Below are positions 1 through 64,000 of a stretch of DNA of 64,000 nucleotides, piece after piece. Numbering within the stretch: the stretch's first letter is position 1; the number at the start of each line of letters is the position of its first letter. This DNA comes from Leucoraja ocellata. Taxonomy: Eukaryota. The notes beneath the pieces are model-generated. The model ran no database searches and had not been told where the DNA came from. It was given only the letters and a program-made list of their open reading frames with translations. A program made the position numbers and the translations under genes. The stretch lies in the NCBI GenBank assembly GCA_036785375.1, contig JAWMAR010000085.1, positions 496,001 through 560,000 on the forward strand, written 5' to 3'.

Positions 1-65
1 GTATTTTGTGTCTATCTTCGGTATAAACCAGCATCTGCTCCGACCTAGCTCTGTCTTACAAAGCA

Positions 66-346
66 GGGCAGCACAGTTGCGCAGTGGTGGAGCTACTGCC
101 TCACAGAGCCAGAGACCCGGGTTCAATCCAGACTACGGGTGCTGTCTGTGCAGAGATTATTCCTGTCTCCGCGTGGGTTTTCCCCGGGTGCTCCGGCTTC
201 CACCCACATCCCAAGGCATGCAGATTTGCAGGTTAAAGGTTTCTGTAAATTACCTCCTGGTGTGTAGGATGCGAAAGTGGGATTACATAAAATTAGTGTA
301 CGGGTGATCGATGTTTGGCCGATGGCTGTATCACTAAACTAAACTG
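66..346 (+). mobile_element. V-SINE (HE1-like) tRNA-derived SINE
   Basis: tRNA-like head (GCGCAGTGG...GGTTCAATCC), central GTGGGTTTTCCCCGGGTGCTCCGGCTTCC core, (CTAAA)n tail; about 20 related copies in the window. Confidence 0.85.
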
Positions 347-349
347 AAA

Positions 350-690
350 GTATGCGGTGGGGGAAGGGTGGAAGCTGGAGGCGAGAAAAGTCCAGGACCA
401 ATCAAGGCCAGCCAGAAATGACCTCAGACTGGGCATTGCCTGGTAAGCCATTTGTTGTCTAGGGAAGGTGCGATTTCAAGAGGGAAACAATATGGCAAAC
501 ATTGGAGCTAGTAAGACTACTGGGGTGGAGGAAGGGGGCAAGGGGGGGGGGGGGGGAGGAAGCGGTGGGGAGTGTAAGTAGAAGTTATATAAGATTAGAG
601 AATTCAATGTTCATACCACTGGGTTGTAAGCTACCCAAGTGAAATCTGAGGTGCTGTTCCTCCAATTTGCATGTGCCCTCACTCTTACCA
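350..690 (-). mobile_element. Penelope-like element 3' fragment
   Basis: Reverse complement of the GGAACAGCACCTCA...GGTAGCTTACAACCCAGTGGTATGAAC block that follows the GIY-YIG coding segments at 21245 and 36400. Confidence 0.65.
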
Positions 691-1258
691 CTGTTCCTCA
701 GTACGCCTGCCAATAACAAACTAAACTATTGGTCATTTTTACTGGAAACATATAAATGGAATTTACAATAGAACAACCTTATTCTAAAATATACGTTAAA
801 TAGATTGTGAAGAAGATCGTTATCATACTCCCTGATTTAGGGTCTTGAATCGAAACATCACCTATTCCTTTTCTCCAGAGATGCTGTCAGGACCCACTGA
901 ATTACTCCAGCACTTTGTGCCTATCTATAGTTATAATAAGATTCTAAATACATCTTAAATAGGCTTTACAACAACACACTGAATGGTTGTTGAGAGATGA
1001 CAAATGTGTGGTTGTTGTAATTGTTATTGGAACCTGATAATTTAAATTGAGTTAAATCCAGCAAGGACGTTTTTTATAAAGGATGAGCATCTCATTTTCT
1101 GTTTGCTTTAAATAATTTGCTAGGCTTCAGTGAGTTAGCCCGGGGCAACATTGTATTAACAATCTGTCCAACTGTGGACATTTAATTATATAAGAAATAG
1201 AAAGAGGACATCCTGCTGAAGCCAGCGCATCCATTTGATATGATTAGGGATGAAACTG

Positions 1259-1552
1259 TAGTTTAGTTTAAAGATACAGTGTGGAAACAGGCTCTTCGGC
1301 CCACCGAGTCTGTGCCGACCAGTGATCCCACACATTAACACTATCCTACACACTAGGCACAATTTACCATTAGACAGAAGCCAATTAACCTACAAACCTG
1401 TACTTCTTTGAAATGTGGAAGGAAACGGGAGATCCCTGAGAAAACCCACGCAGGTCACGGGGAGAACATACAAACTTTGTACAGACATCACCCGTAGTCA
1501 GGATAAAACCTGGGTCTCCGGCGCTGTAATGCAGCAACTCTACCGCTGCCCA
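1259..1552 (-). mobile_element. V-SINE copy
   Basis: Reverse-complement match to the SINE family, including the (TTTAG)n tail and GGAAACAGGC.CTTCGGCCC. Confidence 0.85.
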
Positions 1553-1645
1553 CAGTGATTCCTTATTAAAGTCCAAATATACCACATCTGTTCGTTCCAC
1601 TTTGTTATTTTCCTGAATACGGCCTCCAAACAAAAACACTCTTAA

Positions 1646-2176
1646 GTCCCTGTCCCACTTTCACGACCTAATTGGCAACCTCTGCCGAGTTTGCCCTTGG
1701 CTCATACTCACAGCATGGTCACCATGAGGTCGTAGGAGATCTTCGTAACTCTTCCTCGTGCTCGTGAGTCGTCTCTGCGTACTCGTGGCCTCAAGTGGGT
1801 CGTGGCATTTTTTCCAGCGTGATAAAAAATGTTCACGAGTAAAAAAAAGGTTGGTATGGAAAAAATGGATTATTTTTACTCATCGGTAGGTCGTAGGTAG
1901 GTCATGATGGTGGTCGTAGGTAGTCGTAGGTCAGTAATTGGCTCGAGAAAAAAATGCAGACATGACATCATTTTTATCATGTGATCATTTTCAACTAGTC
2001 GTAGTTGGTCTCAGGTGTGGAAGAGTGAGGTCGAGGGGGGTCGTAGACATAGTTGTAGGAGGTCATAGTCGTAGGAGGTCTTTTACTTTGCCGAGTCAAC
2101 ACGATCTTGACATTTTTTTCAACTCGTCTAGGGTCTTCTAAACTTGTGCCTTAGGTCGTCCAAGTGGGACAGACCT
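1646..2176. mobile_element. Non-autonomous TIR DNA transposon (MITE; PIF/Harbinger- or Kolobok-like)
   Basis: Imperfect TIR of about 25 bp: GTCCCTGTCCCACTTTCACGACCTAA on the left versus the reverse complement of TTAGGTCGTCCAAGTGGGACAGACC on the right; TTAA at 1642-1645 and 2178-2181; CpG-rich interior; no coding capacity. Confidence 0.75.
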
Positions 2177-2528
2177 TTTAAGGTGTTTTTTCCGCGCTAC
2201 ATAATTTTACCTTCACAAAAGCAAATAGTACTGGAGGAAGTCTGCTGTCCTGAGATTGCTGTCCCCATGTCCCTGGGCAATGCTTTTGCCTCCTGTGGTC
2301 TTCCGCTGATGCCAGCAGCTCAGGGGCTCTCTCAGCATGAGTGGCCTTCTGCATCCACACTGTTTTTGACAGTCAGTGAAGCGCTATCCTCCTAGGCTTC
2401 TACAAGCTGTTGAAAGCTGTCACTGTCAATGAATGTCCTTGACATTCACAGTCAAAACCATTTGGGACCCATCGAAAAATCCAGATTTTTTTTCTTGTTG
2501 AAGAAATTGAAGTTACCCGATTAAAAGT

Positions 2529-3392
2529 GTGTGTAGGCACACACACGCATACACGTATCGTTCATCGCTCACTCACTCACTAATCAGTCACTTACCCACC
2601 CACCCATCCACGTGCTCGCTCACTCCCTCGGACACACTCACTAAAGCTCACTCACACATTCATTCACACTCATGCTCAATCTTGTTCATTCTCACACACA
2701 TCCACTTCCACTCATGCTCACTCTGTCACTCACTCAACCACTCACATTGCTCTTACTCATGCTCACTCACCCACTCACACTCATGTTAACTCTCACTCAC
2801 ACCCACACTCATGCACACACACACCACTCGTGCACACTCACACCACTCATGCTCATTCACATTCACTCATCTTCACTCACACACACTCATCAACTCTCAC
2901 ATTCTCACTCTCACTCACCCACACACACCCACTCATGCTCGCACTCACACCCACTCATGCTCACACATGCTCACACTCACTCTCACTCACACCCACTCAT
3001 GCTCACCCTCACTCACACTCACACCGAATCATGCTCGCACTCACTCGCACCCACTCATGCTCACACTCACATGCTCACCCTCACTCACTCTCACTCACAC
3101 CCACTCATGCTCACCCTCACTCATTCTCACTCACACCCACTCATGCTCACCTTCACTCACTCACATTCACTCTTACCAGCTCACACTATTATGCTTACTC
3201 ACACCCACTCAAGCTCATTCTCACTTGCAGTCATGTTTACTCACACCCAGTCACGCTCATCCTCTCTCACACTCACTTTCACTCATACATGCTCACTTAC
3301 TCTCACTCATTCTCCCCTCTCACTCATCCACTCACACACTCACTTGCACTTATACTTGCTCACATGCACAAACACACCCCCCACACACATAC
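2529..3392. repeat. CA/CT-rich, G-poor minisatellite or low-complexity tract
   Basis: Recurrent CACTCACACCCACTCATGCTCAC units; explains the overlapping His/Thr/Ser/Leu ORFs. Confidence 0.9.
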
Positions 3393-59517: not shown

Positions 59518-59822
59518 TGTAGCGGCAGATTTTCATATCTTTCGGGAAATTAGCATCCTAGCCACTAAATGGATGAGAATGGTTGAAGGGGGTGTCTTCG
59601 AAACGCATGCGAGCTCACTCACAGAGACCTTCAGAGCTTCTTCACAGATATGGCTTAAAAACACAGTCTTTTGATGAATAAATGCTTTATTGTTGATAGC
59701 AAACAGTAAGATACATCCAAATTTCTCTAACACACCCAAAACCATGTCATAAATCCCACCCACATTATATCGGGCAGTCTAAAATTTAAAGGCACGTGCC
59801 ATCATCAATGACATGCACTACA
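59518..59822 (-). repeat. 3' LTR of the BEL/Pao element
   Basis: TGTAG...CTACA perfect 5-bp inverted termini; preceded on the minus strand by PPT-like AGGGGCTGGTA (59823-59833); AATAAA on minus near 59687. Confidence 0.85.
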
Positions 59823-59937
59823 TACCAGCCCCTAATTGTTCCGAGTATATAACAAGGCAATTAGTAATAAACATCAAAAAAGTGGCCATAAAGGCTTAAC
59901 ATATATCAAAAGCAAAAGGTCACGGAATAAAACCCTG

Positions 59938-60012
59938 TGGCTCCTCGTCGGGAAATTGAACCCTGGTCTACTGCGTGACAGGCGGGGATACTAAATACTC
60001 TACTAACGAGGA
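59938..60012 (-). tRNA. tRNA-Asp(GTC) copy with encoded 3' CCA, probably a pseudogene
   Basis: Minus strand TCCTCGTTAGTAGAGTATTTAGTATCCCCGCCTGTCACGCAGTAGACCAGGGTTCAATTTCCCGACGAGGAG+CCA; 7-bp acceptor stem TCCTCGT/ACGAGGA, anticodon loop CTGTCAC; about 10 differences from the vertebrate tRNA-Asp sequence as I recall it, including loss of the D-loop GG. Confidence 0.88.
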
Positions 60013-62661
60013 AAAAATATATCTGCAATCAGAATTTTTCATCGATTCTTCCATCTTCACTTCCACCTTCTAGAAACAAGCACAACTAGGTTATTAATCT
60101 TATCAAAACACAGGTTTTAGTTCAAAGTCGTACCGTGCATACCAAACCCTTAAAATCAGGCATGATACCCAGTATATAGTCCAAAACATAACAGTCCAAA
60201 GCTTTGATAGCATGAAACGTCTTCGTCCATATCCGATCAACTCATGAATGTGTCTTAACAGCAATGTTGAAGTATGAAAATCCTTCAAAAGAATAACAGG
60301 ATCTTTAGTTATAAAGTTCACCGTTAGTTTTGATTTAATGTCCGGATCATTAGCAGGGAATTCAAATCCCAGTTCAAGCTTTGGCAATTCTCTGTCTGGC
60401 TTGCAGAGAGATTTTAGTTCATTGATCCATTTCTTATCGCTTAAGAAACGGTTCACTGTCAGTTCACTGGAAACTTCATTTACAGAATTTTCTTCTGTGT
60501 TAACATATTTCAGTAGTGGTACAATGCTCTTTCCATTGGCAGATCGTCTCTGTCCAAATCCAACACTCTGATTTCTTTGGCTCTATCATCTAGTGGAATG
60601 CTTTCACAATTGTCCCGGTTCCACTTAGAAAGTGTGAATCCTCCCTTATTGCAAAGCGGTCAGATGTTCTACTGGTAGAATTGCTTTCTGCTCAGTAGAC
60701 CTGGATTTTAAGTAATCATCCTTGTAGAAATTATTCTTCAAAGAGATTCTTCTTTCATGAAACTTAGTATTCTCGCCACACTTGCGATTCAAAGTCTGGG
60801 TACGTTGCTCTGCCATACGACAATTATTCGGCAGACTAACACTTTCTTGGTTGAAAAGTAAGACCCCACAATAGCGTCCGTCAGTTTTCACTGAATAGTT
60901 CATAATATCCATGAACTTCAACTCTTCATTCGACATCTCTTCAGATTTCTTGCTGGTATTTCCAATGAAGTCATGATAGTATGGCTCCATCATCGGCTTT
61001 TCTAATTCATCAATAGACATTTGATTAACAGCAATGGCAGGCTGGTGCTTCTGATTTACGATTTCGTGGTTCCTTTTCAAGGAGCCATAGATAACCCATC
61101 CAAGTTGGGTTTTCGTAGCATACGGTCCATCGCCTTGGCTCCTAACTATCTGTGTGGGTTCCAACACCTTCAAAACATTCATTCCAATAAGTAGATCAAC
61201 ACTAGAATTTATTTCAGATATCTTGACATCCTTCAGGTAAGGCCATTGCTTCAAATCTTCATGTCTTGGTTTATTTTGACGGCCAACAGGCATAGTTCCA
61301 TGCGTATACACTTCAGATATTGGTATAAAATTATCTTCATCCAAACTGGATATCTACATAGTCGTAATGTAATGACTCGTGCTCTCTTTATCTTTAATCA
61401 TGTAATCGAACCTTAGTCTCTTCTGTGATATTCAATCTTCTCGTCAGGTTTTCTGTGCAAAAGGTAGTCGAACTTCCGTGATCCAGAAAAGCATATGTTT
61501 TCAACACTGTATTCGTCTTGCTGTTCCTTACTTGCACTGGTAAGATAGAAAAATTACGCTTCAACCCCGACCCCAATATGAGCAGTTACTTGAGGCGAGG
61601 TGATAGCATTTCCATTAGTTGGCTTCTCGCCCTGTTCTGTTTGCTCCGGTTCTTCTTTTATTTGCTCTGGTAACTCATCATCCGTTTGTTCCAGTTCTTC
61701 TTCTTCTTCCCAATGCTCTGGTTGCTCTTCTTCAGTATGCAGTGCTTCAGGATGATATTGCTTGCACATAACAAATTATAGGACTCTTGCAGTCTCTGGC
61801 TATAGGTCCCCTTTTCAAACATCCATAACAGATTCCCTTCTCTTTCAAGAAATCCATCTTGTCTTCATATTCTTACATCTTGAATCTTCGACAACATCTT
61901 ATGGTGTGACCAACTTCATCACATAACAAACAAAATACTATTTGCTTGCTAGTAGACACATTCCCTTTTATTCCATCTGTCTGTTCCACAGGTATGGTCG
62001 TGATAGCAAAACTATTTATTTTAGGTTCAGATCTTTCTTTAGTTTTGGTAAAGGTAGAACCTTTGTTAGTTGAAATCAGTTTGTAATCTTCAATATTCCT
62101 GGAGTGTGGCTCTAACATATTCCGTATTTCCCTTTCTAAAAATTCCATCAGTTCTTGTAGCCTGGCTACTTGTCTCTTTTCATCTCATATTTTACCTGCT
62201 TTGTATCTCCACCTTTCTCTCAGTCTTCTGGGCAACTTGCTCAAGATGATTCTAGTATTACTCACAAGATTCATTTCTTCCATGTGACTGAGATTTCTCA
62301 TCGAGCTGCATCAATCTCTCAGTAATATTGCATAATTACTCAATGCCTCCCCATCTTCGGGCTTGATTTGTTTCCAAGCATGGGACTTCTCAATGCATGT
62401 GTTAGCAATCCTCTGTTCATCACCAAAACATTCTTCAAGTAATCTTCTCGCCTTTTAGTAAAGGTACAATGAGCCAAGGGTAGAGTGGGCTAAAGGTACA
62501 GTGCTTTAGTAAAGGTACAGTGAGCTAAGGGTACAGTGCTTTAATAAAGGTACAGTGCTTTTGGTTTATATAATAAAGGTGCTGTTTAAAGGTCAAGAGG
62601 GAGCAGCTGTTGTGAGTCAGATACCTGCTGATTTCTCCCAGCAGTTTCTATTGTATTATAC

Positions 62662-63615
62662 TTGTATCGGATCCAGGGTAAGGCGGGAGAGATAGTGTAC
62701 TGTTCTGGATGTCAGATGTGGGAGGTCATGGTGTCGGATGGCCCTCCAGACATCCACATCTGCACCAGGTGCAGCAAGATGGGGCTCCTAAGGGACCGTA
62801 TTAGGATCCTGGAGCAGCAACTCGATGACCTCTATCTGGTCAGGGAGAGTGAGGAGGTCATAGAGTGGAGTTATAGGGAGGTGGTCATTCCAAAACCACG
62901 GGGGAGAGACATGTGGGTCACGCTAAGGAAGGGCAAGGGGCAGAGGCAGGGATGAGTGAGTACTCCAATGTCGGTACACCTTGCAAATAAGTGCTCCTGT
63001 TTGAGTACGGATGGGGGTGACAGCCTACCCGGGGGTAGCGACTGCGGACGGGCCTCCAGCACAGAGATCGGCCCTGTTGCTCCGCAAGGTAGGGACAAAA
63101 AGAAGAGGGCAACAGTAATTGGGGACTCTATTGTTAGGGGGTTGGATAGGTGATTCTGTGGACACAGTCGGGAGACCAGGATGGTGGTCTGCCTCCCTGG
63201 TGCCAAGGTCTCGGACGTGTCTCAACGCGTCCAAGATATCCTGAAATCAGAGGGAGAGGAGCCTGAGGTCGTGGTACATATAGGTACCAATGACATAGGT
63301 AAAAAAAGGGAAGAGGTCCTGAAGGGAGGATTTAGGGAGTTGGGAAGAGAGTTAAGGAAAAGGACCAAAGAGTTAACAATCTCAGGATTACTGCATGTGC
63401 CACGCGACAGTGAGAGTAGGAATGGAGCGAGGTGGAGGATAAATGCGTGGCTGAAAGACTGGTGCAGAGGGCAGGGATTCAAGTTTCTGGATCATTGGGA
63501 CTTCTTTTGGGGAAGGTGGGACCTGTACAGAAAGGATGGGTTGTACTTGAACCCGAGGAGGACCAATATCCTGGCGGGGAAATTTGCAAAGGCTACTGGG
63601 GAGACTTTAAACTAG
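62662..63615 (+). pseudogene. CR1 ORF1p (CxxC..HxCxxC zinc finger, leucine zipper, SGNH esterase) with two in-frame stops
   Basis: CSGCQMWE...HICTRC; VIGDSIVRG; CLPGAKV; HIGTND; DGLYLN; the three track ORFs are in one frame, broken by TGA at 62953 and 63151. Confidence 0.9.
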
Positions 63616-63657
63616 AATGGTTGGGTGAGGGACAAATAGAGAAAGCTAGTAGACAGA

Positions 63658-64000
63658 ATGGGAGGCAGGAAGCAGAAAATGGAAGCACTCGGACACGAGG
63701 AGAAAGAAAAAAAAGGAAATAAACAGAGAATAAGAGGCGGGGGGTTTCTTAAATGTGCATATTTTAATGCTAGGAGCATTGTAAGAAAGGTGGATGAGCT
63801 TAGAGTCTGGATAGACACCTGGAAGTATGATCTTGAGGCGATCAGTGAAACATGGTTGCAGGAGGGCTGTGATTGGAAACTAAATATTCCAGGATTTCGT
63901 TGCTTCAGGTGTGATAGAATTGTAGGGGCAAGAGGTGGAGGTGTTGCATTGCTAGTCAGGGAAGATATTACAGCAGTGATTTGGCAGGATAGATTGGAGG
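63658..64000 (+). CDS. CR1 ORF2p N-terminal APE-type endonuclease (runs off the window)
   Basis: Open frame from ATG 63658: LKCAYFNARSIVRKVDEL...YDLEAISETWL...IPGFRCFRCDR...RGGGVALLVRE. Confidence 0.88.
   Translation, partial: MGGRKQKMEALGHEEKEKKGNKQRIRGGGFLKCAYFNARSIVRKVDELRVWIDTWKYDLEAISETWLQEGCDWKLNIPGFRCFRCDRIVGARGGGVALLVREDITAVIWQDRLE

Follow-up and report, generated by a model that had tools for sequence, protein, structure and literature searches.

A 3'-UTR tRNA-Asp insert in a BEL/Pao family of Leucoraja ocellata and likely priming with the element's own LTR RNA

A BEL/Pao retrotransposon family of Leucoraja ocellata carries a tRNA-Asp sequence ending in CCA in its 3' UTR. The insert occurs in an old and a young subfamily at one site, is absent from the relatives of the family and is decaying. 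The primer-binding site (PBS) of the family is not a tRNA site. It shows complementarity to a word of the LTR of the same element, located upstream of where poly(A) is added. With considerable confidence, we read the family-wide insert as the likely outcome of one old capture of a mature tRNA, likely without any job, in an element that likely primes with its own LTR RNA.

The tRNA-Asp unit in the window copy

The window, that is, the whole stretch of 64,000 nucleotides analysed (contig JAWMAR010000085.1, positions 496,001 to 560,000, forward strand), contains the following features:

59518..59822, minus strand: 3' LTR, TG...CA, with a deletion of about 190 bp at 59727/59726
59823..59840, minus strand: polypurine-tract (PPT) region, same motif in tRNA-less relatives
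59908..59917, minus strand: T runs at the end of the insert
59919..59937, minus strand: decayed 19-nt second copy of the T arm plus the first acceptor bases of the tRNA, containing TTTT
59938..59940, minus strand: encoded CCA, seen in 0/22 host-type matches
59941..60012, minus strand: tRNA-Asp(GTC)-derived unit, 72 nt, 8 mismatches to the host gene
60013..60017, minus strand: T run before the insert
60032..60190, minus strand: pol C-terminal remnant (end of the DUF5641 region), broken by stops
60163..62460, minus strand: gag with DUF1759 and zinc knuckle, protease, and pol fragments lacking the cores of RT, RNase H and integrase
62632..64000, plus strand: LINE in the BEL/Pao copy, with GDSL-esterase ORF1 and the start of the endonuclease

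ARAGORN called only one tRNA in the window, a tRNA-Asp(gtc) at 59938-60012 on the minus strand with the CCA included, and the Rfam tRNA model matched 59941-60012 over model positions 1-71 of 71 (32.9 bits, E 2.9e-05). Both results back the preliminary description of this DNA, in which a whole tRNA-Asp(GTC) followed by CCA was reported at 59941-60012. The unit lies in the sense orientation between the integrase C-terminus and the PPT and 3' LTR, as had been described (pol remnant 60190-60032, LTR TGT at 59822), and is 115 bp upstream of the 3' LTR of a coding element. The integrase C-terminus is indeed found in the region near 60060, but only the last ~53 integrase codons are left. Likewise, the 3' LTR given as 59518-59822 has its ends at 59822 (TGT) and 59518, but about 190 bp were lost at 59727/59726, and this deletion takes out the PBS-pairing word present in other copies. 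The 5' LTR and PBS, said to lie beyond the window, were located about 4 kb past its end (L061 4939-5385, minus strand).

There is no poly-A around the tRNA unit, in agreement with the earlier reading; T runs flank it instead on either side of the sense strand, and no target duplication was visible around the insert. A T run was also present at the matching place of the tRNA-less family L249, which could be aligned on both sides of the site. The TTTT reported 5 nt past the CCA is there, but it sits in the decayed T loop of the second T-arm copy (59937-59919), and T runs follow at 59917-59908. This second T-arm copy was found in 14/21 old and 14/18 young distinct copies and was nearly host-like in, for example, L017, L025 and L101. 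Compared with the host gene L161, the window tRNA has 8 mismatches in 72 nt, two of which are of the CG>CA type; the count of three given earlier has to be corrected, as the T-loop A is the letter of the host tRNA too.

The window copy is a relic, non-autonomous and split by a LINE. This LINE (GDSL-esterase ORF1, endonuclease-RT) continues in L061 at 1-3221. The same core parts of RT, RNase H and integrase were absent from the window copy and from L063, L076, L080 and L126, and these shared multi-site pol deletions (60163-62460 in the window) mark an abundant non-autonomous subfamily that keeps gag and protease. The young subfamily was found by a DUF5641 search, in which 150 of 838 candidates were scored. 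It has LTR pairs that are 98-100% identical, 5-bp target duplications in several copies, ORFs of up to 2059 aa and BEL/Pao domains. The young copy L219 encodes DUF1759, RVT_1, Peptidase_A17 (E 4e-49), integrase and DUF5641, and the window copy matches it in pieces with 41-67% amino-acid identity. Two other young copies, L222 and L227, sit in tandem-repeat arrays. The BEL/Pao traits that were present are the Pao-type gag/pol domain order PR-RT-RH-IN, the TG...CA LTRs, the PPT and the target-site duplication, while an 18-nt PBS with complementarity to the 3' end of a host tRNA was not found, 25/25 unbiased junctions being non-TGG. BEL/Pao membership, as judged from sequence, rests on the proteins.

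The insert as a family-wide cargo

The family was searched with a 411-bp flank that did not include the tRNA. This search gave 40 scored matches of 1043 candidates, and 30 loci were examined, including the window and some likely assembly duplicates. The tRNA was found in 30/30 flank-picked loci, with at least 61 of 75 bases and at the same offset, and it is therefore an inherited cargo and not a one-off insertion. In a search with the tRNA only, the 30 best loci all fell inside the element. The first result answers positively the question raised before of whether the tRNA is at the same position in other copies and fits the proposal that a mature, CCA-ended tRNA was captured and became a stable family cargo; the second bears out the expectation that the element scatters tRNA-Asp-like copies.

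An exact 37-nt pattern taken from one copy matched 27 places, 22 of which lie outside the element and were used as the host-type set. The discriminator base was followed by CCA in none of these 22 matches. CCA was kept in 18/21 old and 15/18 young copies. Because CCA is encoded in the element but in 0/22 host-type matches, the unit was likely copied from a mature tRNA. Four tRNA-Asp matches (L169-L172) share a short upstream and downstream flank and differ beyond it, and they are possibly retrocopies or part of another repeat. Host tRNA-Asp genes were also seen in repeated units tens of kb apart (L180-L186 on one contig, L165-L166 and L176-L177).

The insert occupies one identical site in the old and young subfamilies. 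No tRNA was found in the 3' UTRs of sister families in the same genome or of 68 metagenome relatives. These 68 are the loci, out of 80, whose pol end could be read, and 59 of them extend to the PPT. A search of viral contigs found no relative. In a tree made without named BEL/Pao reference elements, the cargo lineage was nested among tRNA-less relatives; the nearest sister, L252, carries an interruption shortly before the insert site.

A single old capture of a mature tRNA is likely the best fit to these sequences. The RT of the element would have switched template to a packaged tRNA at a U run during minus-strand synthesis, and two such switches could have copied the whole tRNA from its CCA end plus the T-arm piece. 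The insert could also be a passenger of another origin, if a tRNA retrocopy made by a LINE hit one ancestral element and was then amplified with it. CCA-ended tRNA retrocopies are a known LINE product, and copies of the element are often interrupted by LINEs. However, the insert has no poly-A tail and no visible target duplication, its T runs are on the sense strand, and the extra T-arm piece is better explained by repeated template switching, so that we consider the LINE origin unlikely.

Decay of the carried tRNA

The Rfam tRNA scores were 59.5, 42.7 and 32.9 bits for the host gene, L101 and the window copy, respectively, and no match was obtained at E 0.01 for the young copies L196 and L202. 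The GTC anticodon was retained in 20/23 old versus 0/22 young distinct copies. The anticodon stem pairs in 5/21 old and 0/18 young copies and the T stem in 0/18 young copies; the acceptor stem is able to pair in 15/21 old copies. The insert does not show the intact cloverleaf, anticodon and A and B boxes that together define a functional tRNA gene. ARAGORN nevertheless called a tRNA in 17/30 old loci and in 17/30 DUF5641-picked loci, and the insert gives rise to spurious tRNA-Asp and tRNA-Ala predictions.

Between old and young copies, the identity of the tRNA was 0.78, versus 0.83-0.86 in three flanks, and among young copies it was 0.94 versus 0.97-0.99 in the flanks. The faster divergence of the tRNA may partly be due to its CpG content. 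Among old copies, the tRNA (0.876) was no better conserved than the flanks (0.880-0.889).

These values bear on whether a role as Pol III promoter, TFIIIC barrier or RNA structure preserved the insert, at any rate in the older subfamily. The insert survived many rounds of copying, its D-arm/A-box region, compared position by position, still closely resembled the host sequence in the old and the young subfamily, and a spare B-box-like copy follows the CCA. On the other hand, a canonical B box was found in only 1/21 old and 0/18 young tRNA bodies and in 2/21 old and 0/18 young spare T-arm copies, the old copies show no excess of identity over the flanks, and the CCA-containing half that separates the two T-arm repeats was deleted in L103, L163, L188, L193 and L225. 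The possible Pol III or TFIIIC barrier role put forward in the preliminary description is not favored by these B-box counts. A Pol III or TFIIIC role seems unlikely, and retention of the insert for any of these three functions is, in our estimate, quite improbable.

The PBS and the carried tRNA

Twenty-five 5'-LTR junctions were located without a PBS query. All 25 begin with TT(A/T)(A/T)G and none with TGG. No Asp-type site was found within 200 nt of any of 42 junctions filtered on a TT(A/T)(A/T)G-type start. The PBS after the 5' LTR is thus not complementary to the 3' end of the carried tRNA, as an element-encoded tRNA primer would require, and the earlier suggestion to look for such a site is answered in the negative at 0/42 junctions. 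The duplex of host tRNA-Asp with the PBS was at the level of shuffled sequences (129/500 shuffles as good). In the young subfamily, the cargo plus trailer pairs with the PBS at -11.4 versus -18.7 for the LTR word.

Priming by the element's own tRNA-Asp or its 3' trailer, transcribed by Pol III, would agree with the presence of a whole tRNA plus CCA at one site in all copies, with the acceptor stems that can still pair in old copies and with a short, broken match of the PBS start to the T-arm copy and T run. It is opposed by the junctions without a TGG-type PBS, by the host tRNA/PBS duplex that is no better than shuffles and by the weak pairing of cargo and trailer. In addition, the young subfamily lost the anticodon and B box of the tRNA and altered the trailer, while the PBS start did not change. 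We regard such priming as extremely improbable. The idea of a self-supplied tRNA primer fails on the non-TGG PBS and the missing Asp-type site, and the most recently mobile subfamily has the most degraded tRNA. By these sequence comparisons, the carried tRNA is not the primer. Pairing of the PBS with a Pol III trailer of the element or with an internal part of host tRNA-Asp had been tried as a candidate and was rejected, the duplexes being weak compared with the LTR word or at shuffle level.

Pairing of the PBS with the LTR in the tRNA-carrying family

In L219, the PBS reads TTAA GTCGAAGGATA and the LTR word reads TATCCTTCGAC, and PBS bases 5-15 are its exact complement. The match was 11 bp in 9/12 and 10 bp in 3/12 young junctions, and the young PBS-LTR match extends to 14 bp when a 2-nt bulge is allowed. 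The best PBS-LTR duplex reached -21.5 kcal/mol versus -14.7 +/- 2.0 kcal/mol for shuffled LTRs, and 0/100 LTR shuffles were as good. PBS position 7 and its partner read C-G in 22, A-T in 3 and A-G in 1, one old subgroup having changed both partners, while position 13 covaries poorly (A-T 12, G-C 4, A-C 7, T-C 2, G-T 1). The spacer between the LTR and the paired PBS is 0-4 nt. The word was found in 27/44 5' LTRs, and 13 were unreadable. The four readable 5' LTRs that have the 5' part and do not have the word, the window's own included, could reflect loss after insertion or priming in trans.

The word is located at LTR positions 181-191 of 512, and the poly(A) site is at ~363, about 170 nt downstream of it. 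RNA data came from four oligo-dT or single-cell runs of the same-label species, whose reads were mostly 90-95% alike, partial and from mixed copies. These runs gave the poly(A) site and no 5' pile-up at the LTR word. No LTR intron was found in the tRNA family, and the reads of the four runs contained no splice joints. By analogy with Tf1, the LTR word would fold onto the PBS, and an RNase H cut behind the word would free a 3' end.

Two further observations were made on this region. In old as well as young copies (L219, L131-L160), the ~63-nt block that begins at the PBS occurs as a tandem duplication, of which some copies keep the second block only. The PBS-pairing word doubles as the 3' arm of a local LTR hairpin with a PBS-like 5' arm (L219 LTR 170-195; L249 4462-4484), possibly a switch between alternative folds.

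Pairing in relatives and LTR introns

In the tRNA-less family L249, other letters pair in the same register over 9 bp. In another tRNA-less family, the third examined, four (L259, L270, L271 and L280) of 26 LTR ends leading into internal sequence again pair other letters in the same register over 9-11 bp, and the other 22 have 5-8 bp at scattered offsets. A letter-level prediction written for this third family was wrong; the general pairing rule held.

In the metagenome set of 80 loci, 11 have an LTR end defined by both LTRs; L303 and L358 are related, and L306 and L317 have the same PBS start. At least 6 anchored bp were found in 10/11 of these LTRs versus 36/368 control sites. Removal of a predicted GT-AG intron within the LTR gave a match of 11-15 bp in 8/10 metagenome LTRs and in L245 and L248, while 1/380 controls reached 11; this test left out L291, which has no anchor. 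The donors read GTAAG, GTACG or GTGAG, though only GT was required. The remaining LTRs are L339, with 11 bp unspliced, and L347, with only 7 bp and reading TTGG. L245 (221-747) and L248 (1191-1715; minus strand, oriented coordinates) belong to a distant BEL family of this genome, in which removal of a 204-nt GT-AG LTR intron gives an 11-bp PBS match, and they differ from each other by a compensatory pair. In six loci where only one LTR was readable, searching for the PBS de novo yielded matches of 4-7 bp or none. An initiator role was also considered for the AG that precedes the LTR word; this was rejected for the relatives, where the AG is the predicted splice acceptor.

The pairing might be structural or regulatory only, with some other host RNA or tRNA fragment as primer. 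Half-tRNA priming exists in Copia elements, according to the portions consulted of PMC10886601 and PMC6317226. The spacer between the LTR and the paired PBS and the copies without an LTR word also fit a host primer, and among host tRNAs the comparison with the PBS covered tRNA-Asp. A host primer would, however, keep the PBS constant, whereas the PBS varies among families and tracks its own LTR, across predicted splice junctions in 10 LTRs. We give this explanation little weight and return to priming with LTR RNA, in which the word would be contiguous in the tRNA family and would be built by splicing of the LTR intron in most relatives. Taken more broadly, and with somewhat less confidence than for the tRNA family, we think it probable that a broad, tRNA-free part of BEL/Pao, on both sides of the deepest split of the tree, primes on its own LTR RNA, mostly built by splicing, and that the tRNA family has no intron and carries a whole tRNA that it never needed.

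Discussion

The tRNA insert alone is of modest interest, as an uncommon relic of a complete mature tRNA within an LTR element, and the test of whether it acts as primer carries more weight. Self-priming would extend to a third LTR superfamily, with a precise, testable primer for each family, and a primer built by splicing would, if true, tie retrotransposition to a splicing decision of the host. In the open-access literature searched, no report of the tRNA insert or of BEL/Pao self-priming was found. A term search in the available text of PMC554778, PMC3118150, PMC6238403, PMC2774666 and PMC8220671 returned nothing on BEL primers.

The ICTV profile of the Belpaoviridae describes an 18-nt PBS for host tRNA-Arg or tRNA-Gly and terms replication poorly understood (PMC8742986). 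The element resembles the family in its gag-pol with DUF1759, RT, Peptidase_A17, integrase and DUF5641, in its TG...CA LTRs, in its PPT and in its size. Its PBS, by contrast, pairs with its own LTR and is not of the tRNA 3'-end type, and the profile mentions no tRNA insert in the 3' UTR (PMC8742986).

Helenus TRIMs have a tRNA-like sequence in their LTRs that is not the primer, as given in the part consulted of PMC10886601. Like Helenus, Ajax and Cassandra in that account, the present LTR element carries sequence of a small-RNA gene, inflates tRNA gene counts and has a tRNA-like part that does not prime. In those short, non-coding elements, the tRNA-like part is in both LTRs and has conserved A and B boxes (PMC10886601, same part). 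Here, the element is coding and has the tRNA in a single place, its 3' UTR, and not in both LTRs, with CCA present and the B box lost.

Two other elements reportedly have tRNA sequence at the same place of an LTR element. Cer7 of C. elegans (BEL/Pao) is said to encode its own tRNA primer, and the salmon swim bladder sarcoma virus is said to have a piece of tRNA-Leu before its 3' LTR. The tRNA of Cer7 reportedly matches its PBS, while the carried tRNA-Asp described here does not match the PBS of its element.

The closest likeness in priming is to Tf1, which primes itself, according to the part consulted of PMC7175516, with an 11-nt primer that RNase H releases by cleavage. The self-priming lineages listed in the available part of PMC6317226, Tf1/sushi and Tcn1 (Ty3/gypsy) and TAR (Ty1/copia), are gypsy and copia elements. 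As in Tf1/Tf2, Tf1/sushi, Tcn1 and TAR, in the accounts of these same parts, the PBS of the tRNA-carrying family is complementary to a word of its own LTR, with about 11 bp exact and upstream of the poly(A) site, and there is no tRNA PBS. Unlike those groups, as far as they are covered there, the present elements belong to BEL/Pao, have a spacer of 0-4 nt after the LTR and, in most relatives, have the word split by a GT-AG intron. The word of Tf1 is, in that description, the first 11 nt of its RNA, while the word described here is known from the LTR sequence.
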